In this document: piece by piece, positions 6,486 through 25,228 of the stretch
How the letters are laid out: each line of letters opens with the position of its first letter
Numbering within the stretch: the stretch's first letter is position 1
Assembly: GCA_002722935.1 (NCBI GenBank)
Contig: PBMX01000010.1
Coordinates: forward strand, 2,169-66,168
Length of the DNA stretch: 64,000 nucleotides
From: Phycisphaerae bacterium
GTDB taxonomy: Bacteria; Planctomycetota; Phycisphaerae; Phycisphaerales; SM1A02
Reading direction: 5' to 3'
The notes under the pieces: model-generated
Database searches by the model: none
Told to the model about the DNA's origin: nothing
Seen by the model: the letters and a program-made list of their open reading frames with translations, nothing else
Program-made: the position numbers and the translations under genes

Positions 6486-7574
6486 ATGAACGCCCAAGAC
6501 ATCCTGAAGAACACGTGCCTGCTTGCAGGACTGGTTTCAATCGCCTTGATTTCTCCCACCATGGCCGACGAGGAGGAGCCATTCGACCCGACCTCCCCTG
6601 AGCAGGTCGCCGAACGTGAAGAAGAGAAGGAGGGGGGCAAGGAACCCGAGGAAGGTTTTCTCTCCGGCCCGACGGTCGATCCCTCGAACACCGTGGGTGA
6701 GCGAAACGGCGGCATGTCCGGTGGAAATCGGCAGGGGGGGATGCAGCAGATGGATGTCTTCAGCATCTTCAGCGCCAAGTGCCAGAAGTGCCATGGTCCC
6801 GATTCACAGAAGGGCGGCGTCCAGGTGATGCCCCTCGAGATGGTCTTCAGCGGCTCGGAGAAGCACTGGGTCGTCAAGAAGGGTGATCCGGACAACAGTG
6901 AACTGATCAAGCGGATCAAGTTGGACGCGGGGCATGACGACATCATGCCGCCGGAGGGTGGCCCGCTGTCCGACGCGGAAATCGAGGTCATCGTGGAATG
7001 GGTCAGGTCCGGTGCACCCACCGACGTGCGCCCTTCGCAGGCAAGACAGGCGCGCATCCAGCCTCGACAGTGGGCTCAGGCCTACATGCAACTTGAACTG
7101 GATCAGGAACAGCGAACCGAGGCTGAAACCCTGATGAAGACATACCAGGATCTCAACGGCGAGTTCGACCGTGAGCACCGGGCCCGCATTCGCGAGTTGC
7201 AGCAGAAGATCCGTGAAACCCGTAATACGAATGACACTATTTCAAATGCAGCCAACAAGATGGAACTTGAGCGTCTCCAGGAGGAGCGCCCGAAGTTTGA
7301 ATCCGTCCAGGAGACGCTTTGGAACCTGTTGTCACCCGAGCAGCAGGAACAGATGCGCCTGGCCCTCGAGTCAATGGCATCACGCGGCCAGCAGGGCATG
7401 AACTCCGAACGCCGTCGAGGTCGGAGGCCGGGTGGTCGAAACAGCGGGGGGGAGGAGCTCAGCGAGGAAGAGCGTGAGCGCATCCGTGAACGCATGAAGC
7501 GACGCCGAAATGGTCAGGGATCTCCGCCTCGATCGCCCGAACCCGGCCGGGATGGTGATCCCGGGGAAGATTGA
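6486..7574 (+). CDS. secreted Planctomycete-cytochrome-c (PSCyt1-like) domain protein with charged coiled-coil / LTXXQ-like C-terminal half
   Basis: Signal peptide MNAQDILKNTCLLAGLVSIALISPTMA. Haem-binding-type CQKCHGPDSQKGG followed by DIMPPEGGPL. The C-terminal half is Glu/Arg/Gln-rich (LSPEQQEQMRLAL). Confidence 0.6.
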   Translation: MNAQDILKNTCLLAGLVSIALISPTMADEEEPFDPTSPEQVAEREEEKEGGKEPEEGFLSGPTVDPSNTVGERNGGMSGGNRQGGMQQMDVFSIFSAKCQKCHGPDSQKGGVQVMPLEMVFSGSEKHWVVKKGDPDNSELIKRIKLDAGHDDIMPPEGGPLSDAEIEVIVEWVRSGAPTDVRPSQARQARIQPRQWAQAYMQLELDQEQRTEAETLMKTYQDLNGEFDREHRARIRELQQKIRETRNTNDTISNAANKMELERLQEERPKFESVQETLWNLLSPEQQEQMRLALESMASRGQQGMNSERRRGRRPGGRNSGGEELSEEERERIRERMKRRRNGQGSPPRSPEPGRDGDPGED

Positions 7575-8461
7575 GCAGGAGTTCCCGGCTCCAGGTGAGA
7601 GGCGAGGGCATGGAGTTTCGCGAACGCATCGGCGTGCAGTCGATCAAGTGACGCCCAGTCCTCCTCGTTGCTCCAGATGTACGGATCCCAGAGAGCGATG
7701 CCGTCGGCACGGTGGATGGTTCCATCGGGCGCCGTCCACGTCGCTTGGAGTACTGCGTTTGCATTGGCAAGAAGTTCATCGATGGGCATGAACTTCGTCC
7801 GGTCTCCATCCTGTCCGCAGTAACGCATGCTCAGGTAGACGATGACAGGCTTCCTTCCACGGACCGCTTCAAGAACACGCTGGATGTGGAGTTTGAAATC
7901 GCTGCTGTTCTCCCCGGGCGTGCAGTCATAGGCCGACGGATAGAGCACGCCGCTTCGCGCGATGAGGGGTTCGATCGACAGGCCCTGTTCCTTCCATCCC
8001 TTCGAGACGTTGCGCATGGTCGGCAGGCCCCAGTAGCCCCACTGCAGACCCGGCCTCGCTTCCTGGGCCTCGGCGAGGGCGTCGATGTAGACGGCCATGA
8101 TTTCCTGGAGGCGCTCCGGGTCGAGTTCCCTTGCATTGAGTTCGATCCACCAGGGCTGTTCGTAGTCCATCATGGCCGGCCCGGTGGCATTCAGTGGAAG
8201 GGTTGCATCGACCCACTTCCTGAACTGTCGTCGATCGGTCTCCGTGATCGTTCCATCCTGGTTCCAGTCGACGCCACCGTGGTAGGCGGCGGGAATGGTC
8301 GGGATCCCGAGCCGTTCAATCGTCTTTTTCGTGGCTTCTCCCTGGCCATCGGCCGAGTACTTGATGGCGTCATAGACCATCGGCTTGGATACCACGGGTA
8401 CCGGCACAGGCACTGGTGCCCACGAAAGGATCGGCAGGAGGAAGGGGATCAGGAGCCTCAT
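7514..8461 (-). CDS. secreted GH56-like (hyaluronidase-family) TIM-barrel glycosidase candidate with EF-hand-like loop
   Basis: Signal peptide MRLLIPFLLPILSWAP. Collinear motifs MMDYEQPWW, RPGLQWGYWGLP, GVLYPSAYD, PVIVYLSMRY and ADGIALWD resemble GH56 motifs recalled from bee-venom and human hyaluronidases. Also carries a DWNQDGTITETD Ca-loop-like motif. Confidence 0.55.
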   Translation of the reverse strand: MRLLIPFLLPILSWAPVPVPVPVVSKPMVYDAIKYSADGQGEATKKTIERLGIPTIPAAYHGGVDWNQDGTITETDRRQFRKWVDATLPLNATGPAMMDYEQPWWIELNARELDPERLQEIMAVYIDALAEAQEARPGLQWGYWGLPTMRNVSKGWKEQGLSIEPLIARSGVLYPSAYDCTPGENSSDFKLHIQRVLEAVRGRKPVIVYLSMRYCGQDGDRTKFMPIDELLANANAVLQATWTAPDGTIHRADGIALWDPYIWSNEEDWASLDRLHADAFAKLHALASHLEPGTPAQSSPGSPSRPGSGDRGGDP

Positions 8462-8607
8462 GAGTGCCTATCCTACGCTTGGAAATGACGAGGGCCGAGA
8501 TTGGCTTGAAGTCACCCCCCGGGGATCACCGAAAATCAGGGTGAGCAGGGGCCCAGGACACACCTGCAACCGGGCAGGAGACGCCGGGGAGGGCACGCGG
8601 AGCATCC

Positions 8608-9990
8608 ATGGATCGAATCCAGATCTATCTCGACATCGTTCCGTTGCCGGTTGCGGTGGCCGGGGCGTTCTTCGCGGTCTTCGCCTTCTTCGCCATCCCG
8701 AGCCGGTACAGGCTTTCTGTCGCCCTGACCATCATGCCCATCTGGCTGACCATGTCCCGCCTGCCCGAGTTCGAGATCCAGTGGCTTCCGCCCGCCGCGA
8801 AGATCACGAGCATCATGGGCTATTCGTTCGTCGGCCTGGGAGCCATGTTGCACCCGGGGCCGAGGCGAACCCTTCCGCGGTACGTGTGGCTCTACCTCGT
8901 CATGGCGGTGATCGCCTTCCTGTTCGTGCTCAGGGTCGATGATCGAACGGTCGCATTGATTCTTCGACTGCAATGGCTGACGCTGGTCTTCGCGGCCCTC
9001 ATGCTCGCCCGCACGATCGTCACGACCCAGGACCTGATGCGCATCGTCAATGCACTCGCCTTCGGCTGTTTCCTGGCCTTGGCGCTGCCCCTGTCTGCAC
9101 TGATTCTCTTCCCCGGCGAATCCTTCCTGAAGGGTGGCAACAGGTTCGAGCCCTACGGTGTGAACTCGAACCAGATCGGGATGCTCTTCGCGCTGGCGTT
9201 GCCGTTGCTCGCGTACAAGGGTTTGACCGCCCGCAGGGTCGTCTTCAAGCCGATCCTTCTTGGAGCCGCCGGCATCACCGTTGGAATGGCGTTGCTCACA
9301 GGTTCACGACAGACGCTGCTCGCGATCCTCATGGTTTCAATACCACTGGTCTTCAAGTTCTCGAAGAGACCGGTGATCACGATCGTTGGACTGGCGATCG
9401 GCGCATTCGCAGTCTCGTACGTCATGGGCATGGCGGATGCGACGGCGGTGGAACGACTGAGCGATCTTGAATCGGAACGAATCTACATCTGGGAAGCGTA
9501 TATCCGGGATGTCTTCGCCCAGCGGCCCCTGTTCGGGCTCCTGGGAGTGAGTGGTGAGGAAGCATTCAAGAGCAGCGTCGTCGGCATGCATCCGCACAGC
9601 GCGTATTTCAACATGATGTACATGGGTGGACTCGTCTACACGGTGCCGATGCTCTGGCTCCTGTGGAAGTCGGTCAAGTCGACGAAAACAGTCTGGCAGG
9701 CACGTACGATGCTCGGCACGGATCCACTGCTCATCTCGATCCTGGCCACGCTGCTCCTGGCGATGTACGTACAGGGACTCTTCAACCAGGTGGTCTACTG
9801 GCCCACCTATGCATGGTCCTTCCTGCACGTCATCCTCGCGAGTTTCTTCATGTCGGTGGCGCACGACCTGGAGGTCGAGGACCCGGCCTGGGTCCTGCCC
9901 GATGAAGAGGCGGAATACGATCCCGGCGACTGGTACGACGAGGACGAGGAGGTCGACCCCGGGATGCTGCCGGAAGGTCAACTGGCCTGA
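8608..9990 (+). CDS. O-antigen ligase / Wzy-like polytopic membrane protein
   Basis: 460 aa with at least 10 hydrophobic spans. The LLTGSRQTLLAILMV region is typical of the Wzy_C / O-antigen ligase family. Acidic C-terminal tail. Confidence 0.65.
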   Translation: MDRIQIYLDIVPLPVAVAGAFFAVFAFFAIPSRYRLSVALTIMPIWLTMSRLPEFEIQWLPPAAKITSIMGYSFVGLGAMLHPGPRRTLPRYVWLYLVMAVIAFLFVLRVDDRTVALILRLQWLTLVFAALMLARTIVTTQDLMRIVNALAFGCFLALALPLSALILFPGESFLKGGNRFEPYGVNSNQIGMLFALALPLLAYKGLTARRVVFKPILLGAAGITVGMALLTGSRQTLLAILMVSIPLVFKFSKRPVITIVGLAIGAFAVSYVMGMADATAVERLSDLESERIYIWEAYIRDVFAQRPLFGLLGVSGEEAFKSSVVGMHPHSAYFNMMYMGGLVYTVPMLWLLWKSVKSTKTVWQARTMLGTDPLLISILATLLLAMYVQGLFNQVVYWPTYAWSFLHVILASFFMSVAHDLEVEDPAWVLPDEEAEYDPGDWYDEDEEVDPGMLPEGQLA

Positions 9991-11672
9991 GTGTCCCGCC
10001 TCAGCCATTGCCCCAGGAGCCTGAGTGCACGACGTCGCTCTGGCGCTTCCAGGCCGAAGAGCAATCCGAGGATGCCGTAGGCCGCTGCAAACATGACAGA
10101 GGCTGCCAGCAGGAGAGGCCACTCTCCTTCCCCGGGCGGGAAGTCGATCGCCAGGTAGACCAGCGAGGCGACGATTGAAATCACCAGCGGCCTGCCCAGT
10201 AGACCCAGGAGTCGCGACCAGGTGGTACCGAATCTCGGCGCCGCGATCGCAGGCAGCAGCAGGAGGTGAACCACGAGGAAGGCGAGACTGAATCCCCACG
10301 CCGGGCCGGTCCAGTTCTCGATCCAGATGATCTGTCCCGAGTCGGCCTCGTTCGAGGCGGGGAAGTTGTAGATGAACAGGAAGGCCATCAGCGGGTTGGC
10401 GATCCCGCCGGCGAGGATGAGCGGCGCATATCGCTTGATGTGTCCGGCCCCGTAGAGAAGTTTCATCCAGCCATCGGCGATCGCCCGGCTCATGAGACCG
10501 ATGACCATGATTCGAACGAGCACGACCGTGTGCTGCAGGAAGTCCGCATCTTCGTTCTGCAGTTCACTGCCGACCCAGGTCTGGAGAATCGGTTCGGCGA
10601 GAATGAAGATCGTAAGTGCGCAGGGTATGGCGACGTACCCATGCAACCGCGTCGAATGCCTGGCGATCGAACGAAGCGTGTCGTCCATCTTCGTCGAGGC
10701 GATCCGTGCACTGACCGCATCGAGACCGAACGTCATGCCCAGGGTGCACATCCGGACGTAGCTGACCAGCCTCAGGGCGAGTCCGAACATGGCGCTGCCC
10801 TGGAGACCGAAAACCCCGAGCATGATCCAGGCGCCGATCCGTTCATGCAGGTTCATGGCCGTGACGACGGTGCTGTTCCAGCCGAAGGTTCCGAGTACTT
10901 CCCGGAATGCGCCGACATCCGCCATTCGGAGCTTCGGCCGCAGCCTTGCATCAAGCAGCATGATCCGGCTGACGGCGAAGAGGAGCAGGCAGAGCGACAT
11001 GCCTGCGGCGCAGACGCCGTAGAGCTTCAGGCTCAGTTCGACCTGGTCCGTTCCGAGGACGATGAACAGGACGACCGCCGAGACCAGGTAGGTCAGCCGT
11101 TTCAACGTGAAGTAGAGATTGCTCTCGAAGAAACGCTCGGTGACGATGTACATGTTGTAGGCGGGGGTCAGCAGCACCAGCATGGTGATGGACACGCCTT
11201 CGCATGCAAGGATCCAGAGACCCCCGGTCCGGAAGGCCGGTGGAATCTCGTGGAACGGCCAGATTCCATGCTTCAGCAGGGAGAAGAAGGCGAAGAACAC
11301 GCCAGCCGTCAAGACGGCGACCAGGGCGCAGAGAATGAATGACGAGGCATACACGCGCCTGAAATGAGCAATGTCGTTCTCGGTCGCATCGTCCGCCTCT
11401 GCTGCGTGCCAGACGACGCCCAGTTCGCGGATCATGCTCTGGCGCATGACGTCCTGGAGCATGGCGGCAAGTCCCACGGATGCGCCGATGGCGACAAGGA
11501 GGCCGAATCCCTCCGGCCCGACCCACATGAACTGCACCTTCACCAGGACCAGGCCGATCAGCAGGGTCGACCCGAGGCGACCGTAGTTGCTGGCTATTCG
11601 CTTGATCCCACGGCGGGCTTCGGACATCGAGGTGTGTTCCGGTATTGCTGCTGGTTGCGGTACCTGGCTCAC
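9978..11672 (-). CDS. polysaccharide flippase-like (MOP/Wzx-type) membrane protein
   Basis: 564-aa polytopic protein with length and topology like the polysaccharide biosynthesis (Polysacc_synt) family. Converges on the Wzy-like gene with a 13-nt overlap. Alternative start at M16 (11627). Confidence 0.55.
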   Translation of the reverse strand: MSQVPQPAAIPEHTSMSEARRGIKRIASNYGRLGSTLLIGLVLVKVQFMWVGPEGFGLLVAIGASVGLAAMLQDVMRQSMIRELGVVWHAAEADDATENDIAHFRRVYASSFILCALVAVLTAGVFFAFFSLLKHGIWPFHEIPPAFRTGGLWILACEGVSITMLVLLTPAYNMYIVTERFFESNLYFTLKRLTYLVSAVVLFIVLGTDQVELSLKLYGVCAAGMSLCLLLFAVSRIMLLDARLRPKLRMADVGAFREVLGTFGWNSTVVTAMNLHERIGAWIMLGVFGLQGSAMFGLALRLVSYVRMCTLGMTFGLDAVSARIASTKMDDTLRSIARHSTRLHGYVAIPCALTIFILAEPILQTWVGSELQNEDADFLQHTVVLVRIMVIGLMSRAIADGWMKLLYGAGHIKRYAPLILAGGIANPLMAFLFIYNFPASNEADSGQIIWIENWTGPAWGFSLAFLVVHLLLLPAIAAPRFGTTWSRLLGLLGRPLVISIVASLVYLAIDFPPGEGEWPLLLAASVMFAAAYGILGLLFGLEAPERRRALRLLGQWLRRDTQAS

Positions 11673-11806
11673 ATCCTAGGCACAGAACCGCCCTTGGAGT
11701 ACACCTGGGGGACCTGTGCATCCTGGAGGACCCCATTTTTCCGAATATCGGCTTTGCGTCCATGGTGCCGGGGGTACGGTATTCCAGGAGGGATTCGGGG
11801 CGAAAC

Positions 11807-13150
11807 ATGGATCGAAAGCCACGAAATGGGTATCGATTGGTGCCGCTGGCCGTCGTGTTGGCGAGTGCTCTGTCCTTGCAGGCCCATGGAGGAGAGGGAT
11901 TGGCGTTCGAGGATCATGTCCAGTACCTCACGGGTGGAGAGAACTCCACCGGCGTGGCAGCCGCCGACATCGATGGTGATGGTGACATCGACCTCTTCTT
12001 CTCGAATCGCTGGACGCATGACGTCACGACCCTGCTGAATGACGGGCAGGGATTCTTTGTCGCGGGTCAGGCCGTTGGGGTAGGGGTGACACCCCGCTAC
12101 GTGCGGGCCGCGGATTTCAACGGGGACGATGCTCCCGATTGCACGACGCCCGACTATGACGGTTCGAGCGTCAGCATCGTGCTCAATGACGGTTCAGGAA
12201 TATTGCAATTCCACCAGAGCGTCGATGTATATCGACCCGCCGTGCTCGACATCGTCGACTTCGACTCCGACGGCGACAACGATGTGCTCGTCGCTCACTG
12301 GGACGAGGACTCGAGCCAGCCCAGCCAGGCGCTGGCGATGATGTCCGTGCTGTTCAATGACGGATCGGGCAACTTCACCGCCGGTGAACCGGCGACGATC
12401 GGTATCCAGCCCCGTGGAATGGATGTCACCGACTTCAACAATGACGGGTTGCCCGATGCCATCGTCTGCAACCTCGCATCCAACGACATGGACCTCCTGA
12501 TCAATGCCGGTGATGCCACCTTTCTCCCGACCATGATTCTCGATGCACCCCACCAGCCCAGGTACGTCACGGCAGGGGACTGGAACGACGACGGAGCGGA
12601 GGACATCGCCGTCGTGAGCAAGAGCACCGCGATCATCGAGTTCCAGCGGCACGACGGTGCACTCGGGTTCACGACGACCCAGTCGCTGGCGACGATGAGC
12701 AATCCCCACTCCTGTACGAACGTCGACCTGGACCTCGATGGCGATCTCGATGTCCTCGTATCACACGTGGGATCATTCAACGTCTCCATCTACCTCAATG
12801 ACGGGCAGGGCACCTTCGCTCCGCGGTGGAACCTGTATTCACCCAACGGGCCCGCCGAGGTCATCACGGCCGACCTCGATGGGGATGGCCTGCCCGACAT
12901 CGTCACGGCCAACACGAACAATCACACCTGCTCGGTGCATCTCAACGCATTGGACTACGAGGCGCCCTCGTGCCAGGCCGACCTCGATGGCAACGGGGCG
13001 GTCGATGTCCTCGACCTCCTGCTTGTCATCCAGAACTGGATGTCCTGCGAAGGGGGTACATGCCCACCCGGGGACATCAACGAAAGCGGGCAGATCGACA
13101 TCATCGATCTTCTGTACCTGCTCGAGGCATGGGGGGAGTGTCCTGTTTAA
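11807..13150 (+). CDS. secreted FG-GAP/VCBS-repeat (beta-propeller) protein with C-terminal dockerin-like double EF-hand
   Basis: Signal peptide MDRKPRNGYRLVPLAVVLASALSLQAHG. Repeated D-x-D/N-x-DG-x-x-D plus hydrophobic strand units. C-terminus DLDGNGAVDVLDLLLVIQNW...DINESGQIDIIDLLYLLEAWGEC. Confidence 0.75.
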   Translation: MDRKPRNGYRLVPLAVVLASALSLQAHGGEGLAFEDHVQYLTGGENSTGVAAADIDGDGDIDLFFSNRWTHDVTTLLNDGQGFFVAGQAVGVGVTPRYVRAADFNGDDAPDCTTPDYDGSSVSIVLNDGSGILQFHQSVDVYRPAVLDIVDFDSDGDNDVLVAHWDEDSSQPSQALAMMSVLFNDGSGNFTAGEPATIGIQPRGMDVTDFNNDGLPDAIVCNLASNDMDLLINAGDATFLPTMILDAPHQPRYVTAGDWNDDGAEDIAVVSKSTAIIEFQRHDGALGFTTTQSLATMSNPHSCTNVDLDLDGDLDVLVSHVGSFNVSIYLNDGQGTFAPRWNLYSPNGPAEVITADLDGDGLPDIVTANTNNHTCSVHLNALDYEAPSCQADLDGNGAVDVLDLLLVIQNWMSCEGGTCPPGDINESGQIDIIDLLYLLEAWGECPV

Positions 13151-14513
13151 TCGACTTCCAATCCTGGTGGTCCTCGTGCTCCCGGGCGTTCAGCTCGAGG
13201 CGGGCACCTGTGAACACATCGGGTTCGAGGCCCCGGCCAACTATCAGGTCGAGACCGAGGGCGATGACCTCACGTTCATCCGATGCGTCGAAACGGGCGA
13301 TCTCGATTCCGACGGAGATGTGGATGTCATCGCAAGTGACCGGTACGGGGAGGAAATCGTGATCCTGCTCAATGACGGCGAGGGGAACCTCGAGGAGTGG
13401 GGCTCCGTCTTCTCGGATGGATGTGAACGCAACAGGATCGTCATCCTGGAGGACCTCGATGGCGACGGGCTGCTCGATATCGCCTCCGCCTCCTATGCTG
13501 GAGCTGCCGTGTTCCTCAACGCCGGTTTCGATGGAGACTGGCTCGGGTTTGAACCCGTGGCGGTCTATCCATCCGGCTTCAGTCCACACTGGATCGATGC
13601 CGCCGATCTCGATCTTGATGGCGATCTCGATCTGCTCATCGCCGATTTCGGTGAAACCGACATGGAAACCGGCTGGCATGCCTTTCTCAACAACGGCGAC
13701 GGCACGTTCGCGACCGGCATCGAAACGATTCTGGGATACAACGCACGCTGCATTTCCATCAATGGAACCGATCTTGATGGCGACGGGTACCCGGAGATCA
13801 TGATCGCCGGTGCACGGCTCAACGGCGGGTTCATCCATGTATTCGACAACGCCGGCATCGACTCGAACGGCGACTGGCTTGGTTCGGACTATTCAGTGAG
13901 CATTCCGGTCACCTACGGAGCGTGCTCGATTCGCGCATTCGATCGAGAACACGACGGGGACATGGATCTCGTGGTCGCGCACAGGAGCCAGCCGGAACTG
14001 TCCTTCCTTGTGAATGACGGCTCAGGTGGCCTTGTCCTCGAGACGATGGTCGTCCAGACGAGCATCGAATTGGCGCAGCCCGTCGAGATTGATGGCGACG
14101 GCGTCACGGACATCGCGCTCGTCGTGAAGAACACGGGGCAGATGCGGCTCCTGATCAATGACGGGAGCGGCCAATTCGTGGACAGGGGGTCCACCGGTGG
14201 CGGTGTCGATCCGAAGTTCGCCGCCTTCGCCGACCTCGATTCGGATGGCGACATGGACGGCGTCATGGCCAACTCGTATCCCGGCCAGGATTACGGCTCG
14301 GTTTCGGTCCACCTGAACAACTCGGCCGTACTCGAATCCGGGTGTGAACTCGACCTGAACTGCGATGACCTCGTGAGTACTGGCGATCTCCTGATCGTCC
14401 TGGCCGACTGGGGTCCGAACCCGGACCTGCCGGGAAATGTCAATGGCGACGGCCATGTCAATGTCAACGACCTGCTCATCATCATCGGCGCATGGGGACC
14501 ATGCGACCCCTGA
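13143..14513 (+). CDS. secreted FG-GAP/VCBS-repeat protein paralogue with dockerin-like C-terminus (start unresolved)
   Basis: Same repeat architecture as the upstream gene. C-terminus GDLLIVLADWGPNPDLPGNVNGDGHVNVNDLLIIIGAWGPC. A signal-like FNRLPILVVLVLPGVQLEA follows a CTG at 13143. The nearest in-frame ATG is 13005, inside the upstream gene; a GTG lies at 13167. Confidence 0.7.
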   Translation: MFNRLPILVVLVLPGVQLEAGTCEHIGFEAPANYQVETEGDDLTFIRCVETGDLDSDGDVDVIASDRYGEEIVILLNDGEGNLEEWGSVFSDGCERNRIVILEDLDGDGLLDIASASYAGAAVFLNAGFDGDWLGFEPVAVYPSGFSPHWIDAADLDLDGDLDLLIADFGETDMETGWHAFLNNGDGTFATGIETILGYNARCISINGTDLDGDGYPEIMIAGARLNGGFIHVFDNAGIDSNGDWLGSDYSVSIPVTYGACSIRAFDREHDGDMDLVVAHRSQPELSFLVNDGSGGLVLETMVVQTSIELAQPVEIDGDGVTDIALVVKNTGQMRLLINDGSGQFVDRGSTGGGVDPKFAAFADLDSDGDMDGVMANSYPGQDYGSVSVHLNNSAVLESGCELDLNCDDLVSTGDLLIVLADWGPNPDLPGNVNGDGHVNVNDLLIIIGAWGPCDP

Positions 14514-14587
14514 CGGGTGCGTGCTGGACGGATGAACGCTCCCGAACCGATGAGTTCAGCACCCGAAGCCCGTGAGTCGACCACCCC

Positions 14588-15409
14588 ATGACGGATGATC
14601 CACGCCGACACCCACTGACGTTCCTGGTGCTTGGATGCCAGCGATGCGGCACGACCTGGCTGGATGCCGCGCTTCGTGAACATCCCCAGATCTATCTTCC
14701 TTCGCAGAAGCAGACCTATTTCTTCGATCGCCACCAGGATCGTGGAATCGACTGGTACCTTTCGCAGTTCGATGGCGTCGAAGAGGGACATGCGGCCGTC
14801 GGAGAAGTGGCCACTGGATACTGCCTGCCCGAGGTGGTTGCGGATGTCGCCGACGTATTCGGTGACGTCGACGTCCTGCTCATCGTTCGCAATCCGATCG
14901 ATCGTGTCTACAGCAACTACCAGGTTCGACGACAGGAACAGGGGTGGGGCTCGTTCGAGGAGGCCATCAAGTCCGATCCGGATCTCCTCGCTCGGAGCAG
15001 CTATGCCGACCAGCTTGAGGTCATCCTCGCCCACTGGCCTTCCGACCGTGTTCACGTCCTCTTCCAGGATGATCTCGAGCAGGACGATCGAGCCTTCCTT
15101 GCCCAGGCCCTCCGGATTCTCGGCGTGGACGAGTCGTTCGAGTCCAGCCAGTTCGGACAGGTGAGGAACTCGGCGATGTTCCCGCGAATCAGGGGAACGG
15201 CCCAGTCACTCGGCCTCCGTTCCATCCTCGGCATGCTCAGCCGGAGTCCGCTTGGAAACGCGGTCCGACGCATGCGCAAGAAGCGGTCGGGACGAGGCTA
15301 CCATTCGATGAATCCACGGACCCGAGAGGAACTCGTCGCCTACTTCAGGCCGTTGAACGAACGTCTCGCTGCCCAGACAGGTCGTGACCTGTCACATTGG
15401 AACCGATGA
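14588..15409 (+). CDS. PAPS-dependent sulfotransferase family protein
   Basis: 5'-phosphosulfate-binding-type motif LVLGCQRCGTTWL and 3'-phosphate-binding-type motif VRNPIDRVYSNY. 273 aa. Confidence 0.8.
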   Translation: MTDDPRRHPLTFLVLGCQRCGTTWLDAALREHPQIYLPSQKQTYFFDRHQDRGIDWYLSQFDGVEEGHAAVGEVATGYCLPEVVADVADVFGDVDVLLIVRNPIDRVYSNYQVRRQEQGWGSFEEAIKSDPDLLARSSYADQLEVILAHWPSDRVHVLFQDDLEQDDRAFLAQALRILGVDESFESSQFGQVRNSAMFPRIRGTAQSLGLRSILGMLSRSPLGNAVRRMRKKRSGRGYHSMNPRTREELVAYFRPLNERLAAQTGRDLSHWNR

Positions 15410-15416
15410 GGAACAC

Positions 15417-16586
15417 GTGCGAATCGGAAACTACATCTCTGTGGTGGCTGGAGAACTCGGGTACGAGCACAACGTGTCCGGGCACATCCAGGTTCCATTG
15501 GAAGGCATGAGGCGACTGAAGGAGGCAGGGCACGATGTGCACCTCGTCACGAACGAGTTCGGCGAGGATCGATCATTGCCTGCCTGCCTCGATGAAACCA
15601 TTCCGGTCCACCTGGTGAGCGATGCACGGAACCGGGGAGGCATTCTCACCCGGGACTCCGACCAGGGACGGGGCGTGAAACTCGCGGCGCTGCGTCGACA
15701 GGTCCGCCAATTGAAGGGGATCTGCCTGGAGCACGGCTTCGACGTGCTCCACCTTCACGGGTACAACCGGACAGCGCACCTGGGTGGGGGACTGAGGCTG
15801 ATGGGACTTCCCTGCCCGGTCGTCTGTACCGTCTTCGGCGGAATCTTCCCTGAACGATGCGGTCTCCTGACACGAAGACTCTGGAACAGGGTCGATGCCC
15901 TGGTGACCGCGACCCGGTTCGTGAAGCAGGAGTACGAGGCCCAGGGATTGAACGTCAGCCAGGTTCGACATGGACTCATCCGGGACCTCCGGAGTGAATA
16001 TGAAGGCACCCCGGAATCCTCGAGACGACGTGTTCTCTTCTGGCGGGACCCATCGACCGAGAACGGGGCCGATCTCGCTCTCGAGGCCTATCGTGCGCTC
16101 GCTCCACGCTACCCCGACATCGACTTCGATTTCGCGATACGTCCCTACTGGGATCCCATAGACGGAATCGACGAACTGGCGGTGGAACACGACAACGTGC
16201 ATGTCTACCGGTTTCCCTATTCCGATGGCATCACCCTTCCCGGTCTTGTCGTGAACTCCCTCTGCGTCCTCCAGCCGATGAGACAGTTGACGATCAATCC
16301 GCAACTCGTCATCGCCGAGAGCCTGGCCGCGGGCGTCGCCACCATCTCTTCCGATCTCGGATCCACCGGGGAACTGGTGCAGGACGGTGTCACCGGTCGA
16401 CTGGTGCCGGTCGGGGACGGCAAGGCATTGACCGATGCCCTCGACGGCCTCCTGGCCGATCCGGCTGCGCTTGAAGCGATGGGACACGCAGCCAGCGAGG
16501 ACATGGCCGCCCGGTGGAACTGGGAGCACTTCATCAATGACGTCATGTCCATCTACAATCGTGTCATTCCCGGGAGCGCTGCATGA
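15417..16586 (+). CDS. glycosyltransferase family 4 (GT-B, Glycos_transf_1)
   Basis: EX7E-type region IAESLAAGVATISSDLGSTGELVQDGVTGRLV. Start placed at the GTG (VRIGNY...) 8 nt after the sulfotransferase stop; the ORF track opens at 15384. Confidence 0.8.
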   Translation: MRIGNYISVVAGELGYEHNVSGHIQVPLEGMRRLKEAGHDVHLVTNEFGEDRSLPACLDETIPVHLVSDARNRGGILTRDSDQGRGVKLAALRRQVRQLKGICLEHGFDVLHLHGYNRTAHLGGGLRLMGLPCPVVCTVFGGIFPERCGLLTRRLWNRVDALVTATRFVKQEYEAQGLNVSQVRHGLIRDLRSEYEGTPESSRRRVLFWRDPSTENGADLALEAYRALAPRYPDIDFDFAIRPYWDPIDGIDELAVEHDNVHVYRFPYSDGITLPGLVVNSLCVLQPMRQLTINPQLVIAESLAAGVATISSDLGSTGELVQDGVTGRLVPVGDGKALTDALDGLLADPAALEAMGHAASEDMAARWNWEHFINDVMSIYNRVIPGSAA

Positions 16587-17725
16587 AGGTTCTTCACTGG
16601 TATCGATCGATGGATCTGGAGATGGGGGGCGTGGTCCGCGCCGTCCTGGACATCTCCGGGGCCATGGCCGACCGGGGGCATGAACAGGTCATCGCCACGT
16701 TCGAACAGGCTGAACTGGAATCGATGTGGACTTCGCACGGCGCCAACCGGTCCGTCCTCCAGTTGACTTCATCGGGCCATCGCCGTCGACCGCTCGCCGG
16801 CGAGTCCCTTCAACGCATCGAGGCCGAGATCGGGAACTGCGATGCCGTGCACCTGCATGGCGTGTGGGACCCGGCCTGTTACCAGTTGGCGGGCATCGCC
16901 GAACGTGCGGGCGTTCCATATCTGGTGAGTCCGCATGGTGTCCTCGACGACTGGTGCATGAAACAGAAGTCCTTCAAGAAACGGCTGTACCTCGCCATGG
17001 GCTGCCGTCGCATGCTCAACAAGGCGAAGGCTGTTCACTGCACCGCCGAGGGAGAACGTCAGCAGGCGACGCGCTGGTTCAACCCCGACCGCGCACGCGT
17101 CGTGCCCCTTGTCTTCGACCTTGATGAATACCTCGTCCTTCCCGGTCCCGAGGAAGCCCACGATGCCTTCCCGTCGCTCTTCGAAGGTCCCCCGGTTCTG
17201 CTCTTTCTGAGCAGGATTCATGTGAAGAAGGGGCTCGAACATCTCGTCGCTGCAGCGGCCGAACTTCATGCACGCGGTGAATCCGTCCGTGTCGCGATTG
17301 CCGGGACAGGTGACCTCGACTACGTGGAACGGCTCAAGGAGCAGGTCGCATCGTGCGGCATGGAGGAAGTCGTCCACTTCATCGGGTTCGTCTCGGGGAC
17401 CAGGAAGGTGTCCCTCTACCAGGCGTCCGACCTCTTCGTCCTGCCGACGCACCAGGAGAACTGGGGGTTCGTGCTCCTCGAGTCCCTGGCATGCCAGACG
17501 GGACTGGTAACGACCAAAAGCGTGGACATCTGGCCGGAACTGGAAGCCTCGGGGGGTGCCGTCATCGTCGAACGTTCGGCGAAGTCGCTGGCGGATGCCA
17601 TCCAGCCGCTCCTCGCGAAGCCTTCGCGGCTCGAGACGATGGGGAAGCGTGGACGCGAATGGGTCCTGGAGGAACAGGATGCCGACCGGGTCGCGGAACT
17701 CTACGTCCAGTTGTACTCGGATTGA
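16583..17725 (+). CDS. glycosyltransferase family 4
   Basis: MKVLHWYRSMDLEMGGVVRAV N-terminus, plus PTHQENWGFVLLESLACQTGLVTT (EX7E region). 4-nt overlap with the upstream GT gene. Confidence 0.8.
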   Translation: MKVLHWYRSMDLEMGGVVRAVLDISGAMADRGHEQVIATFEQAELESMWTSHGANRSVLQLTSSGHRRRPLAGESLQRIEAEIGNCDAVHLHGVWDPACYQLAGIAERAGVPYLVSPHGVLDDWCMKQKSFKKRLYLAMGCRRMLNKAKAVHCTAEGERQQATRWFNPDRARVVPLVFDLDEYLVLPGPEEAHDAFPSLFEGPPVLLFLSRIHVKKGLEHLVAAAAELHARGESVRVAIAGTGDLDYVERLKEQVASCGMEEVVHFIGFVSGTRKVSLYQASDLFVLPTHQENWGFVLLESLACQTGLVTTKSVDIWPELEASGGAVIVERSAKSLADAIQPLLAKPSRLETMGKRGREWVLEEQDADRVAELYVQLYSD

Positions 17726-17732
17726 ATCCGTG

Positions 17733-18887
17733 TCACTCGAGGCCCAGCGCCGTGTCGAGACGTGCGGCAATCGCGGGCCAGGTGTAGTGTTCGCGCACGA
17801 GTGCGGCGCCCGCGGACCCCATCCGACTTCGGGCATCCGTTGAGGAAACCACTTCATGCATGGCCTGGCCGACCGCTTCCGGGTCGAGCGGAGTCACCAG
17901 GCCTGCGCCTGCCTCGGCGACCTCGGGAAAGTGACATGCCTCGGTGATCACGACCGGTGTTCCGCAGCCCAGCGCCTCGGTGATCGCCATCGAGAATCCC
18001 TCCTGGCGACTGGGAAGGCAGAAGCAGTCGCAGTCGACGAGCGCGGCGAGCTTGTCGGTTCCGTACACCGGACCGATGCAATGGATGTTGCTGCGTGCTG
18101 AACTCGCCTCGATGATCGTATGCAGCGTCGATTCGTACCCGTCATCAGGTCCGGCGATCACGAGACGCAGTTCCGGTACGCGTGCATGGACCTGCTCGAA
18201 GGCCGAGACGAGAATGTCGAGGCCCTTCTTGTAGTGGAGCCTGCTGAGGAACAGCACGAATGGTTCGTCGTCGAGTTCCCGTCGGCTCTCCCGGAACGTG
18301 CCCCGTTCGGGAAGGGGTTCGATTTCCTCGAGGAAGATCCCGTTGGGGATCACCTCGATAGTCGCCGCTCCGACATGCGGTTTCATGCCAGCCTCCTCGT
18401 CGCGATTGAGGGCGTGGATGAAACGCGACCCCTCGAGCATGTTCTGGCCGCGGAAGGCCAGTGCGAGGCGCTTGCGCAGGCGTCCCTGGTCCATGCACCA
18501 CGGATCGAGCATTCCGTGGGGGGTGATGATCCAGTCGGTGCCGGTGCGACGCGCTTCGCGCGCGGCGTTGTGCAGGATCGGATCCCATACACCGTGGAGG
18601 TGCACCAGTTCGTATGCTTCGACGTGCTCGCGAAGCCACGTCCTCGCCTGCCTGGCTCTGACTCGTTCAATGGGACCACCTGGTTCCAGGAGGTGTACGT
18701 TTAGCAGCCCGTTTCCGGGGAGCGATGTGATCATCGAGTCGATTCGTTCCCTCGCGGAGGTTTCGGCATGCGCGAGCACATCGACATCATGTCCGCGCAT
18801 TTCCTGTGCGGCCCCGAGTCGCGTTACGACAACGGGAGGGCCGCCTTCAGCCGGGTCGAGGGAAGAGATGACGTGGAGAATGTGCAT
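17733..18887 (-). CDS. glycosyltransferase family 4
   Basis: MHILHVISSLDPAEGGPPVVV N-terminus, plus PSRQEGFSMAITEALGCGTPVVITE. Confidence 0.8.
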   Translation of the reverse strand: MHILHVISSLDPAEGGPPVVVTRLGAAQEMRGHDVDVLAHAETSARERIDSMITSLPGNGLLNVHLLEPGGPIERVRARQARTWLREHVEAYELVHLHGVWDPILHNAAREARRTGTDWIITPHGMLDPWCMDQGRLRKRLALAFRGQNMLEGSRFIHALNRDEEAGMKPHVGAATIEVIPNGIFLEEIEPLPERGTFRESRRELDDEPFVLFLSRLHYKKGLDILVSAFEQVHARVPELRLVIAGPDDGYESTLHTIIEASSARSNIHCIGPVYGTDKLAALVDCDCFCLPSRQEGFSMAITEALGCGTPVVITEACHFPEVAEAGAGLVTPLDPEAVGQAMHEVVSSTDARSRMGSAGAALVREHYTWPAIAARLDTALGLE

Positions 18888-19007
18888 TCAAGTGGCTTCA
18901 AGGTCGGTACAGGCGTAAACAGGTTGCCCTTGGGAGTCTAGGTCACTACCATCGGCTGTTTCCCGGTGTATTCATTCCAAACCAGCCCCAGCAGGAGCCC
19001 TGCCGCG

Positions 19008-20201
19008 ATGCCCTCACATGATCTGATTGCCCCGAACGGTGGAACACTGGTCGACAGGTTCGTTACCGGTGATGAAGCAGCCAAGCTCAAGGACGCTGCC
19101 GATTCGATGCCGTCCATCACATTGACCTTCAAGCAGGCCTGCGACCTGGAGATGATCGCCATTGGAGCGTTCAGTCCCTTGACGGGATTCGTCGGTCCAG
19201 AGGATTTCAAGTCCATCTGCACGACGATGCGAACCGCGGACGGTACGCCGTGGCCCATTCCGATCACGCTTGCGGTCGATGCCGAAACCAAGGATTCCCT
19301 CGCGGTCGGCGGCCAGGCGGCCCTCTACCACGCCGATGGCACCTTGATGGCGGTCATCGACGTCGAGTCGATCTACGAGCACGACAAGGCCCTTGAACTT
19401 CCCAATGTGTTCCGGACCGATGACCCCGCCCACCCGGGTGTCCAGGCCGTCCTCGAGGAAGGCGACTGGCTGGTCGGCGGACCAATCCATGTCCTGACCG
19501 TGACGCCCGAGCATGAGCCGGGAGAGCAGTTCACCGATCATCGCCTGGTACCGGCGGCGACTCGTGCGGCCTTCAGTGAGCGTGGCTGGAAGACCGTCGC
19601 GGCCTTCCAGACCAGGAACCCCATTCACCGCGCGCACGAGTACCTATGCAAGTGTGCTCAGGAGATCTGTGACGGACTGCTGATCCATCCGCTCGTTGGT
19701 GAAACCAAGCCCGGAGACATTCCGGCCGATGTCCGCATGCAGTGCTACGAGACCATCATCGACCACTACTTCGTCGATGACAGGACGATGTTGACGGTGA
19801 TGCCGGCCGCCATGCGCTACGCCGGCCCGCGTGAAGCCGTCCTGCATGCACTCGTTCGACAGAACTACGGCGTGACCCACTTCATCGTCGGTCGCGATCA
19901 TGCCGGCGTGGGCGACTACTACGGCACCTACGATGCCCAGAACATCTTCGACGAGTTCGAACTCGGCGAAATCGGCGTGACGCCCCTGAAGTTCGAGCAC
20001 GCCGCCTGGAGCAACAAGGCTCAGGGCATGGTCAGCAGCAAGACCTTCCCGAAGATCGAGGGTGACCAGATCTTCCTGAGCGGCACGAAGGTCCGCGAAC
20101 TGCTTGACAAGGGCGAGCGTCCACCGGCCGAGTTCTCTCGACCGGAGGTGGCGGATGTACTCATCGAATGGGCGACCGCCGAGTCGACTGCGGCGGTCTG
20201 A
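19008..20201 (+). CDS. sat: sulfate adenylyltransferase (ATP sulfurylase, Sat type)
   Basis: [14 protein letters not shown] and [16 protein letters not shown] motifs. Start placed at [15 protein letters not shown]; the ORF opens at a GTG at 18966. Confidence 0.9.
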
Positions 20202-20238
20202 TCGAATCACGTTTCAACGAAGCAGGAGCACGAGAGAC

Positions 20239-20859
20239 ATGGCTGAACAGGTAGCGACAAACATCACCTGGCATGACGGAACGGTCACGAGGGACGAGCG
20301 CAAGGCCGTTCTCAAGCAGAAGGGCTGCACCGTCTGGTTCACGGGACTTTCCGGTAGCGGCAAGAGCACGATCGCAGTTGCGCTCGAGCAGGTGCTGTTC
20401 CAGCGAGGGCACGTCGCCTATCGACTTGATGGCGACAACGTCCGCATGGGTCTCAACAAGAACCTTGGCTTCTCGGCCGAGGATCGAGCCGAGAACATCA
20501 GGAGAATCGGCGAGGTCTGCAAGCTCTTTGCCGATTCCTGTGTCATCACCCTCTCGAGTTTCATCAGTCCCTATCGCGAAGATCGCGACCAGGCACGCTC
20601 GCTTCACGCCGATGGAGACATCGATTTCATCGAGTGCTACGTCGAGTGTCCGCTCGAGGTCGCCGAGGAGCGTGACCCCAAGGGCCTCTACAAGAAGGCT
20701 CGTGCAGGCGAGATCAAGGGATTCACGGGCATCGACGATCCATACGAGGAGCCCGAGTCCGCGGAACTCGTGATCAATACGGCTGAATGTTCACTCGAGG
20801 AGTCCGTCCAGGCCGTCCTCGACTGCCTCGAAGCCAGGGGCCTCCTGAAGGCCGACTGA
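20239..20859 (+). CDS. cysC: adenylyl-sulfate (APS) kinase
   Basis: [19 protein letters not shown]-loop, [19 protein letters not shown]. Start at [12 protein letters not shown]. Confidence 0.92.
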
Positions 20860-23761: not shown

Positions 23762-25228
23762 TCAGGACAGCAGTTCGGTCCGCACCGTACCGTGGACGTC
23801 CGTCAGGCGGAAGTCCCGCCCCTGGGACCTGAAGGTCAATTGCTCGTGATCGATGCCCAGCATGTGGAGCATCGTCGCCTGCAGGTCATGGACGCTGATT
23901 GGATTCTCGTCGACGTGGGCACCCCAGGGGTCCGTGGACCCGATGACGGCGCCGGCCTTCGTGCCGCCACCGGCCATCCAGATGGTGAAGCATCCCGGGT
24001 GGTGGTCACGGCCCAGGAAGGTGCTTCCATTTCGCTTCTCGTTCATGACGGTCCGTCCGAACTCGCCCGACCAGACGACCAGCGTTTCCTCCAGCAGCCC
24101 GCGTCGCTTCAGGTCCAGCAGGAGCGCGGTGACGGGTCGATCCATCCCGCGACACTTGGCCGGGAGTTGTGTCATCAGGTCGTCACCCGGGCCGGTTCCA
24201 TGGACGTCCCAGCCCCAGTCGTACAACTGGACGAAGCGGACTCCCGATTCACTGAGCCGGCGGGCCAGCAGGCAGTTGTTGGCGAACGTGGCCGCCCCGG
24301 GCTGGGCACCGTAGAGCTCGAGGGTTTCGGGTGATTCCATCGAGATGTCCATGATGCCCGGAACCGCGGTCTGCATCCTGAAGGCGAGTTCATACTGCTG
24401 GATTCTGGAGAGGATCTCCGGATCACCCAGGGACTCCGCCTGCATCTGGTTGAGCCTGTTGATCGCGTCGATCGTGTTCGATCGAAGTTCACGGTCCATG
24501 CCGGCCGGATCATGGACGTCGAGCACGGGATCACCACCACTGCGACACTGCACGCCGGAGTGGACCGTGGGGAGAAACCCGCTGTCCCAGGCGGCCGTCC
24601 CCGCCGATGGTTTCTTTCCGCCGGACACGAGCACGAGGAAGGACGGCAGGTCCTGGTTCTCAGTGCCAAGTCCCCATGAAAGCCACGAACCCATCGAGGG
24701 TCGGCCCTGCAAGGCATGGCCCGTCTGCAGCAGCAGTTGGGCCGGCGCATGATTGAACTGGTCCGTGTACATCGATCGAACGATGCAGACGTCATCGACG
24801 ATCTCCTTGAAGTGCGGGAGGAGTTCACTGACCCAGGCGCCGTTTCCGCCGACCTGCTCGAAGGAGTAGGGCGTCCCGAGCACCATCGCATCGGGTTTCA
24901 CGAAGGCCGATCGCTCCGCATAGCAGTCGACCGGTGCGACTTCACCATGCCGCTTGTTGAGCAGGGGCTTGTAGTCGAAGAGATCATGGTGCGGTGGTGA
25001 CCCGGCCATGTGCAGGTAGATGACACGCTTGGCCCTTGGAAGACCGTGGGGCAGTGGGCTCGGGTTCGTGGAGTTCCCCGTGATGGATCCCATGACCCCG
25101 TTGTTGAGCAGCCCCGAGAGGGCGGCGGCGCCGAAACTGCACGTCGCCCGACCCAGGAAGTGGCGGCGGGTCTGGCACTCCGCCCGGGCGTGATCGAGCA
25201 TCGGGTTGTGGGGGGGGAGTGGTGTCAT
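23762..25228 (-). CDS. DUF1501 (sulfatase-fold) protein with twin-arginine-like signal
   Basis: QTRRHFLGRATCSFGAAALSG Tat-like N-terminus and GRDHHPGCFTIWMAGGG. Start ATG overlaps the stop of the upstream DUF1553 gene (ATGA). Confidence 0.85.
   Translation of the reverse strand: MTPLPPHNPMLDHARAECQTRRHFLGRATCSFGAAALSGLLNNGVMGSITGNSTNPSPLPHGLPRAKRVIYLHMAGSPPHHDLFDYKPLLNKRHGEVAPVDCYAERSAFVKPDAMVLGTPYSFEQVGGNGAWVSELLPHFKEIVDDVCIVRSMYTDQFNHAPAQLLLQTGHALQGRPSMGSWLSWGLGTENQDLPSFLVLVSGGKKPSAGTAAWDSGFLPTVHSGVQCRSGGDPVLDVHDPAGMDRELRSNTIDAINRLNQMQAESLGDPEILSRIQQYELAFRMQTAVPGIMDISMESPETLELYGAQPGAATFANNCLLARRLSESGVRFVQLYDWGWDVHGTGPGDDLMTQLPAKCRGMDRPVTALLLDLKRRGLLEETLVVWSGEFGRTVMNEKRNGSTFLGRDHHPGCFTIWMAGGGTKAGAVIGSTDPWGAHVDENPISVHDLQATMLHMLGIDHEQLTFRSQGRDFRLTDVHGTVRTELLS

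Follow-up and report, generated by a model that had tools for sequence, protein, structure and literature searches.

A divergent GH56-like glycosidase homologue encoded beside a Wzy-like gene in a planctomycete glycan locus, and its association with Wzy proteins in other bacteria

A gene for a predicted exported glycosidase was analysed in a stretch of 64,000 nucleotides from a Phycisphaerae bacterium of the Planctomycetota (GenBank assembly GCA_002722935.1, contig PBMX01000010.1, positions 2,169 to 66,168 of the forward strand), which is called the window here and in whose coordinates all features are given. The gene (7514..8461, minus strand) starts with ATG and encodes 315 amino acids (aa), and its open reading frame (ORF), translation, Pfam and PDB matches and predicted fold identify the product as an exported (beta/alpha)-barrel glycosidase homologue. 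Profile searches and structural models confirmed that the gene is a real, although very distant, relative of the animal and venom hyaluronidases of glycoside hydrolase family GH56. We consider it fairly probable, judging from the sequence, that the protein is a catalytically competent and very divergent member of the GH56 superfamily, exported and acting as an accessory of a Wzx/Wzy surface-glycan pathway in which it processes the polymer made by its own cell. The main interest of these results reaches beyond the window and is the systematic partnership, seen in gene order and gene fusion in more than one phylum, between this enzyme family and Wzy polymerases. An earlier note on the same DNA had described the gene as an animal-type hyaluronidase homologue transcribed divergently from a Wzy-like gene; the ORF and the peptides quoted there are all present and collinear, and the divergent arrangement is borne out by the coordinates of the partner gene (8608..9990, plus strand), which encodes a multi-pass membrane protein of 460 aa with at least eight transmembrane segments.

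Homology to GH56 hyaluronidases

When the window protein was searched alone, PF01630 (GH56) was its top Pfam match, over profile positions 158-272 only and with a sub-threshold score that is weighed below, and a single-sequence phmmer search of the PDB reached the bee hyaluronidase (Hya) only at E=0.33, so that profiles were needed to obtain a signal. A response-regulator match in the same PDB search was spurious. A word-indexed search returned 49 homologues, all of them from Phycisphaerae/Planctomycetota metagenome-assembled genomes and one automatically named 'hyaluronidase'. In an alignment of 28 sequences of this clade D99-Y-E101, W141-G-Y-W-G-x-P147, P175, Y178, R213 and W258-D259 are invariant and Y174 is nearly so, and PF01630 was the best Pfam match of 26 of these sequences. 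The clade profile, searched against the whole PDB, retrieved three chains, all belonging to GH56, namely wasp Ves v 2 (2atm, 1.7e-4), bee Hya (1fcq, 3.5e-4) and human HYAL1 (2pe4, 0.04).

Moreover, when 1.84 billion representative proteins were searched exhaustively with a profile, 332 clusters (50% identity) were recovered at E<=1e-3. The wider family was aligned as 55 proteins of about 300 aa, comprising the window protein and 54 mostly distant members that are 17-41% identical to it; PF01630 was matched by 49 of the 55 (best E 2e-15), and some members scored above its gathering threshold, for example P0091 with 28.5 bits and P0093 with 30.2 bits. The clade of the window protein aligned in hhalign with a group of 16 Bacteroidota-type sequences at a probability of 99.9% (E=3e-31, 227 columns), and the profile of this group, which contains no sequence of the former clade, retrieved 1fcq (1.6e-17), 2atm (2.8e-13), 2pe4 (1.3e-10) and PH-20 (9jub, 5.1e-10) from the PDB and nothing else. 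NCBIfam held no model for the window protein, its Wzy-like neighbour, the Bacteroidota-type protein P0096 or the fusion protein P0066 described below.

The AlphaFold2 model of the window protein (mean pLDDT 84.8, pTM 0.83) alternates strands and helices, and D99-Y-E101 comes directly after strand 94-98, in agreement with a barrel that carries the D-x-E motif at a strand end. In a Foldseek search of the PDB the GH56 structures 1fcu, 2pe4, 1fcq and 2atm ranked on top (E 2e-9 to 1e-8, TM-scores 0.48-0.57), the first non-GH56 fold was Cwp19 at 1.2e-5, and GH5/GH10 barrels and PslG appeared near 1e-4. A second model, that of P0096 (pLDDT 89.1), placed all six GH56 entries first, followed by Cwp19 at 3.7e-4, and a search against viral structures gave generic TIM-barrel glycosidases only. 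The GH56-like homology proposed in the earlier note is thus upheld by the Pfam ranking, by profile searches of the PDB that returned GH56 only and by the Foldseek ranking, and a better match to another bacterial family was looked for in Pfam, NCBIfam and Foldseek and none was found.

Cwp19, the best non-GH56 structural neighbour, is a peptidoglycan-active barrel of C. difficile, and the beta-1,4-linked N-acetylglucosamine of peptidoglycan would suit substrate-assisted catalysis, two points in favour of an endo-beta-N-acetylglucosaminidase that opens the wall locally for the polysaccharide export machinery. Such a role is highly improbable, however, since the scores of Cwp19 fall short of those of GH56 by 3 to 6 orders of magnitude, the partner of the gene is specifically Wzy and not an export component of the outer-membrane polysaccharide export (OPX) or polysaccharide co-polymerase (PCP) type, and the gene changes along with O-antigen-type loci that are themselves highly variable, as would be the case for a glycan-specific enzyme.

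Conservation of the active-site residues

Residues were mapped from HMMER alignments to 1fcq_A, the numbering of which reproduces that of the literature. The peptides GPAMMDYEQPWW (aa 94-105), RPGLQWGYWGLP (aa 136-147), GVLYPSAYD (aa 171-179), KPVIVYLSMRY (aa 204-214) and ADGIALWD (aa 252-259) of the window protein lie opposite the bee segments GVGVIDFES (106-114), RPAANWGYYAYP (176-187), DVLLPSVY (220-227), KKVLPYYWYKY (260-270) and DGFIIWG (296-302). All five motif pairings listed in the earlier note were reproduced by the family-profile alignments, and for this reason they are not due to chance.

The catalytic motif D99-Y100-E101 (8159..8167; this and all further motifs of the protein are on the minus strand) is invariant in the clade, is aligned to GVGVIDFE and corresponds to bee Asp111 and Glu113. 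The alignments and their per-column table match the second motif (8021..8056) to its bee counterpart; bee Tyr184 of that segment is, by the established numbering, HYAL1 Tyr202, and the Trp that the window protein carries there (W144) may alter substrate binding. In the third motif, Y174-P-S-A-Y178 (7928..7942), the clade-invariant Y178 is aligned with bee Tyr227, by the established numbering HYAL1 Tyr247, which positions the acetamido group of the substrate. Y209 of KPVIVYLSMRY (7820..7852) is the counterpart of bee Tyr265, and W258 of ADGIALWD (7685..7708) that of bee Trp301, which by the established numbering is HYAL1 W321, the Trp of the -1 pocket. Y178 and W258 are in register in both the HMMER and the hhalign alignments.

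Across the wider family E101 is conserved in 55 of 55 proteins, R213 likewise in 55, Y178 in 54, and D99 and W258 in 53 each, and the conservation of these five residues makes it likely that the GH56-like protein is catalytically competent. An inactive module that only binds the glycan and keeps the polymer close to Wzy, as a tether or scaffold, would be in keeping with the sub-threshold Pfam score of the window protein and with the exchange of Tyr184/202 for Trp, yet we find it scarcely credible, because the acid/base Glu is present in 55/55 and the Asp, Tyr178 and Trp258 in 53-54/55 of proteins that are only about 20% identical, a near-invariance that points to selection on catalysis.

R213 (codon 7823-7825) is invariant in all 55 bacterial members, and bee K269 and a Phe of HYAL1 occupy the same column. 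The residue is a candidate determinant of a substrate feature specific to the bacteria, for example an acidic or sulfated group.

A clade-only HMMER alignment had placed DYEQPWW opposite the bee segment 'REHPFW'. This was rejected as a gap-avoidance artefact, which arose because the stretch from the catalytic strand to the RPxxWGY motif is about 28 residues shorter in the bacterial proteins; broader profiles put the D-x-E on GVGVIDFE.

Compared with the animal and venom enzymes (bee Hya 1FCQ/1FCV, Ves v 2 2ATM, HYAL1 2PE4 and PH-20 9JUB), the window protein has the same barrel, collinear motifs, the D-x-E, the equivalents of Y178, Y209 and W258, and an export signal. On the other hand, it shares only about 15% identity with them, falls below the Pfam cutoff, is shorter by those 28 or so residues, has Trp144 for Tyr184/202 and Arg213 where animals have Lys or Phe, and carries an EF-hand-like loop specific to its clade. 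The conserved disulfides and the EGF-like C-terminal domain of the bee and human enzymes are absent. Additionally, the bacterial gene lies in a Wzy-linked biosynthetic context and not in one of extracellular-matrix turnover or venom.

The EF-hand/dockerin-like loop, DWNQDGTITETD (D65 to D76, aa 65-76; 8234..8269), fully fits the pattern D-x-[DNS]-x-[DNS]-G-x-[ILV]-x-x-x-[DE] and has a local pLDDT of about 71. Within the clade, loop position 1 is D in 28/28 sequences, position 3 N or D in 27/28, position 5 S, D or N in 28/28, position 6 G in 28/28, position 8 I in 28/28, but position 12 D in only 8/28 and N in 20/28; calcium binding by the loop is possible. The loop reported in the earlier note is present, although it does not precede the barrel as was stated there; in the model it sits within the barrel domain, between an early strand and helix 74-87, and at this position the alignment shows a 'GN(I/L)T'-type segment in the animal enzymes.

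Export is indicated by a hydrophobic N-terminal signal or anchor (aa 1 to about 25; 8387..8461) with the sequence MRLLIPFLLPILSWAP, a hydropathy peak of 2.16 over residues 3-14 and a Pro/Val-rich linker behind it, and most bacterial members of the family carry signal peptides or lipoboxes. A sister subclade (for example P0016, P0021 and P0043) has a conserved C-terminal tail, 'GLPEPxNS ... RVPSGRI' (alignment columns ~340-414), that is missing from the window protein; a PEP-CTERM reading of this tail was rejected, as no hydrophobic segment follows the motif.

Association with Wzy proteins across bacteria

The divergent arrangement with a Wzy-like gene is kept in the orthologous loci L001 (55% identity) and, at about 40% identity, the P0021 contig and L003. 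The Wzy-like protein of the window has no Pfam match itself, and its orthologues show a weak match to Wzy_C (PF04932). Furthermore, the two genes are joined in the fusion protein P0066, which has 802 aa, occurs on 4 contigs from several sequencing runs and consists of a Wzy_C-like membrane domain and a C-terminal GH56-like domain. The N-terminal half of this protein matches Wzy_C at E=7e-6, and the Wzy-like protein of the window aligns with its residues 1-422 at 32% identity (E=2e-74), so that what are two divergent genes in the window are joined in a single polypeptide elsewhere. The glycosidase domain of P0066 is predicted to be extracytoplasmic, as a loop of 9 Lys/Arg and then one extra transmembrane helix stand ahead of it, and this predicted location would agree with the signal peptides of the free-standing proteins. 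A tandem order is found at L008, where the GH56-like gene is immediately preceded, in the same orientation, by a Wzy-like gene (38% identity, E=3e-35).

The Wzy_C family covers polymerases as well as ligases (PMC10920833). WadA, a bimodular protein of the Wzy_C/O-antigen-ligase type in which a GT121 is appended to a GT25, is a precedent: here too a membrane domain of the Wzy_C type is joined to a globular enzyme, a sign of their coupled action on one glycan (PMC10920833). The appended domain of WadA is, however, a glycosyltransferase (GT), whereas P0066 has a GH56-like glycosidase and the window two separate divergent genes; a CAZy survey of Wzy-type polymerases mentions the GT25 fusion and no fusion to a glycoside hydrolase (PMC10920833).

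More distant members, about 20-25% identical to the window protein, were found inside O-antigen- or capsule-type operons with Wzx, Wzy_C, GT2/GT4, DegT aminotransferase and NeuB/CMP-sugar genes. Species-representative genomes were scanned with a tighter alignment, which gave 37 loci in Flavobacterium, Chryseobacterium, Sphingobacterium, Pedobacter, Chitinophaga, Mucilaginibacter, Saprospiraceae, many Phycisphaerae/Planctomycetota and one Paceibacterota. For 17 Bacteroidota loci a Pfam batch scan covered the genes up to three places away from the GH56-like gene, 102 in all; among these, GT4-type (26) and Wzy_C (12) genes were the commonest, Wzx flippases, HisH/HisF-like pairs and sugar-nucleotide epimerases also recurred, and no SusC/D, sulfatase or lyase family was among the top 25 neighbour families. 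In ten other loci Wzy_C was again the top neighbour family. The gene directly adjoining is a Wzy_C gene above the Pfam threshold at L014, L019, L020, L029 and L036, and one of 28 bits in Tepidisphaera (L038). Genomes usually carry few Wzy_C genes, and for this reason we infer that the two families co-occur far above chance. A custom Wzy hidden Markov model (HMM) built from four sequences recovered the in-clade orthologue only, its reach being narrow because Wzy proteins diverge too quickly.

The earlier note had left two roles side by side, the trimming of a self-made polymer and the degradation of hyaluronan or chondroitin from the environment. The former is favoured by the conserved pairing with Wzy and by the fusion, and the gene context lends no support to the latter. 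In its general form the second role would be that of a catabolic hydrolase of the hyaluronidase/chondroitinase type, secreted to feed on glycosaminoglycans (GAGs) or other sulfated polymers of animals, algae or microbes that contain N-acetylhexosamine (HexNAc). It would accord with the GH56 homology, the intact catalytic residues and the export of the protein, with the literature on marine PVC bacteria as degraders of sulfated polysaccharides, and with the automatic 'hyaluronidase' annotation of one homologue. Nevertheless, we judge it very unlikely, as no sulfatases, lyases, transporters or uronate/hexosamine catabolic genes stand beside the gene in the window or the orthologous loci, biosynthetic genes and Wzy_C dominate the neighbours in the 27 further loci, and an enzyme for foraging would have no reason to be fused to a Wzy-like membrane protein.

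Tight coupling with a Wzy_C-family protein, up to fusion, could also be expected of a transglycosylase, that is, a retaining enzyme of the oxazolinium type that transfers polymer segments (in cross-linking, re-attachment, or passage from the lipid carrier to an acceptor) together with a Wzy-like and possibly ligase-type Wzy_C protein, this family spanning both polymerases and ligases. Transglycosylation by animal and venom GH56 enzymes has been reviewed, and the bacteria-specific invariant R213 is absent from the animal enzymes. The same residues serve hydrolysis too, however, and the glycosidases known from within exopolysaccharide (EPS) loci are hydrolases or lyases, so that transfer as the main activity appears unlikely to us.

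HisH/HisF-like pairs (GATase and His_biosynth) adjoin GH56-like genes at L009 (12393-13764) and in about seven Bacteroidota loci. By analogy, they resemble enzymes of the WbuY/WbuZ type, which produce amino sugars with acetamidino or N-acyl groups, and this would fit a glycosidase that needs a 2-acetamido sugar. GH56-like domains were also seen fused to dockerin repeats, EGF-like or Cys-rich repeats and a right-handed beta-helix domain (P0055, P0061, P0067 and P0134), and a GH56-like copy of 682 aa is encoded in a genome of Candidatus Paceibacterota, of the candidate phyla radiation (CPR; L037, 9188-11236). Most bacterial members are labelled 'hypothetical protein'.

Proposed function

The data presented here show the homology, the conservation of residues, the export signals and the linkage with Wzy, and the substrate, bond specificity and physiological role of the enzyme are what we infer from GH56 chemistry and from the gene context. 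In GH56 the nucleophile is the 2-acetamido group of the substrate itself, and subsite -1 must therefore hold a beta-linked N-acetylhexosamine. By this chemistry, the window protein would be a retaining endo-beta-N-acetylhexosaminidase with substrate-assisted catalysis, in which Glu101 would serve as the acid/base, Asp99 and Tyr178 would position the 2-acetamido group of the -1 sugar as the nucleophile, and Trp258, Tyr209 and Trp144 would line the pocket. In the cell, the GT4 enzymes of the locus could assemble the repeat units, a cytoplasmic sulfotransferase could sulfate them with 3'-phosphoadenosine 5'-phosphosulfate (PAPS) provided by the ATP sulfurylase and adenosine 5'-phosphosulfate (APS) kinase encoded there, Wzx would flip the units and the Wzy-like protein would polymerise them. 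The GH56-like enzyme, beside Wzy in the periplasm or at the surface, would cut beta-HexNAc linkages of this self-made polymer, and the outcome might be a set chain length, a released polymer or the clearance of aberrant product.

Glycosidases and lyases encoded within EPS loci are well known, among them PslG (GH39), PelA, BcsZ (GH8), AlgL and PgaB, and ExoK and ExsH (GH16) in the Wzy-dependent succinoglycan pathway; PslG, BcsZ, AlgL and PelA belong to synthase-dependent systems. All of these are, like the predicted enzyme of the window, secreted or periplasmic cleavers of glycans encoded in the locus of their presumed substrate polymer. The window protein differs from these enzymes in its glycoside hydrolase family, in a substrate-assisted mechanism that would need a 2-acetamido sugar, and in a pairing specific to Wzy that extends to covalent fusion.

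Several observations weigh against a GH56-like accessory of the Wzx/Wzy pathway. The Pfam score of the window protein, 16 bits (E=0.0059), is below the gathering threshold of 23.2 bits; W144 stands in the column of bee Tyr184, with Tyr143 adjacent, and this Trp is shared by its clade where most of the wider family has Tyr; and the TM-scores to GH56 structures are moderate, at about 0.5-0.6, from which it follows that the protein is a divergent relative and not a close copy. In the locus of the window no pathway for HexNAc nucleotides is encoded. Both flanks of the gene are syntenic in its clade, the housekeeping side included, which vertical inheritance could explain, and hence the case for a functional linkage rests on the fusion, the tandem arrangement and the distant lineages. 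Finally, among the Planctomycetota paralogues L043-L048 several have no Wzy gene within 3 genes. The association of GH56-like and Wzy genes is thus strong and not universal, and an accessory enzyme that processes the polymer of its own cell is still the reading that we prefer.

Implications for the GH56 family and the Wzx/Wzy pathway

Reviews and a comparative study treat GH56 as a family of mammalian and venom enzymes, to which members from choanoflagellates and a filasterean were added later. The statement in the earlier note that characterised GH56 enzymes are essentially metazoan or venom proteins agrees with this literature, but uncharacterised bacterial GH56-like sequences are numerous and form about 330 clusters. 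In the literature and databases bacterial GH56 appears in automatic annotations only, as dbCAN counts in Acidobacteria and one 'hyaluronidase' label, and our literature search found no paper containing both terms GH56 and Wzy. The sequences described here would form a bacterial, Wzy-coupled branch of the GH56 superfamily, to be placed in CAZy either in GH56 or in a related or sister family; between the two the placement is not fixed, because the score of the single protein lies below the Pfam threshold and one active-site Tyr is replaced.

A wider proposition, which we advance tentatively and with more doubt than belief, is that GH56-like glycosidases are a previously unrecognised and widespread accessory of the Wzx/Wzy pathway that works physically with Wzy in setting the chain length or in releasing or transferring the polymer, and that they are ancestral to the hyaluronidases of animals and their unicellular relatives, which would then not be a holozoan invention. 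The bacterial branch of about 330 clusters includes cultured Flavobacterium, Chryseobacterium, Sphingobacterium, Pedobacter and Chitinophaga, its catalytic machinery is intact and its partnership with Wzy is consistent. O-antigens, capsules and many exopolysaccharides are products of the Wzx/Wzy pathway, in which the control of chain length and the release of the polymer are only partly understood. If the proposition were true, this pathway would gain a new enzyme class, the animal hyaluronidases an evolutionary source and glycan engineering a set of new HexNAc-specific endo-glycosidases, and attention would be drawn, in this planctomycete, to a self-contained set of genes for a sulfated polysaccharide, which few bacteria are considered to make.

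The glycan locus in the window

The Wzy-like gene opens what is probably, by its gene content, a compact and conserved Wzx/Wzy-type locus that makes a sulfated glycan and provides the PAPS for it (8608-20859). It is followed by a candidate Wzx-like flippase of the MOP superfamily (9978..11672, minus strand), with a MatE score of 20.7 bits against a threshold of 24.9 and orthologues that match MatE and Polysacc_synt_3. Two FG-GAP/VCBS repeat proteins recognised by Pfam, the first with a dockerin-like segment, lie at 11645..14513 (plus strand) and have orthologues of 471 and 459 aa; the second probably starts near 13.1 kb, since the listed ORFs overlap. All orthologous loci encode such beta-propeller-type proteins at this place, with the flippase gene on one side and the sulfotransferase gene on the other (L001, 3608-6410; L003, 3580-4920).

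A PAPS-dependent sulfotransferase gene (14588..15409, plus strand; Sulfotransfer_1 and Sulfotransfer_3) is kept in the orthologous loci. Three GT4 genes identified by Pfam come next (15384-16586 and 16583-17725 on the plus strand, 17733-18887 on the minus strand), with the cyanobacterial hormogonium-polysaccharide protein HpsP as their best NCBIfam match, below cutoff. The genes for ATP sulfurylase (18966-20201; Pfam E=2.4e-91) and APS kinase (20104-20859; 5.8e-72), together at 18966..20859 on the plus strand, are likewise kept in the orthologous loci, and their products are predicted to supply PAPS together. Among the ORFs annotated at 0-30 kb of the window no priming phosphoglycosyltransferase, PCP (Wzz/Wzc) or OPX (Wza) protein was seen.

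Loci with a comparable content have been described. In the xss (synechan) cluster of Synechocystis 6803, sulfotransferase, glycosyltransferase, Wzx and Wzy genes stand together (PMC8205485), and the cluster for a putative sulfated GAG-like EPS in Pontiella has sulfotransferase genes among glycosyltransferase genes (PMC7356697). No glycoside hydrolase is reported for either cluster (PMC8205485, PMC7356697), whereas the locus of the window has the GH56-like gene and adds its own ATP sulfurylase and APS kinase and the FG-GAP/dockerin proteins.

The GH56-like and Wzy-like genes diverge from an intergenic region of 146 bp (8462..8607); a sigma-70-type consensus was not found in it, a scan that is uninformative for this phylum, as is the promoter/terminator scan. 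On the P0021 contig (JGI 3300072015) and at L002 (1212-2114) the GH56-like gene is followed, with zero intergenic gap, by another sulfotransferase gene, which suggests co-transcription of the two in this lineage.

On the other flank of the GH56-like gene, Pfam identified housekeeping genes together with genes for an Mrp/NUBPL ATPase, an Rce1-like protease and a planctomycete cytochrome c. The last of these is convergent with the GH56-like gene, and the 3' ends of the two share about 61 nt (7514-7574); the orthologous locus L001 has a corresponding overlap of about 40 nt (10945-10984). Base composition is uniform across the window, at 59-64% GC, with no island signature; a recent horizontal transfer from an animal was rejected, the composition being native and the family having deep and varied lineages in two bacterial phyla. 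A typical planctomycete DUF1501 / PSCyt1-PSCyt2-PSD1 gene pair (23762-28281) follows the glycan locus downstream.

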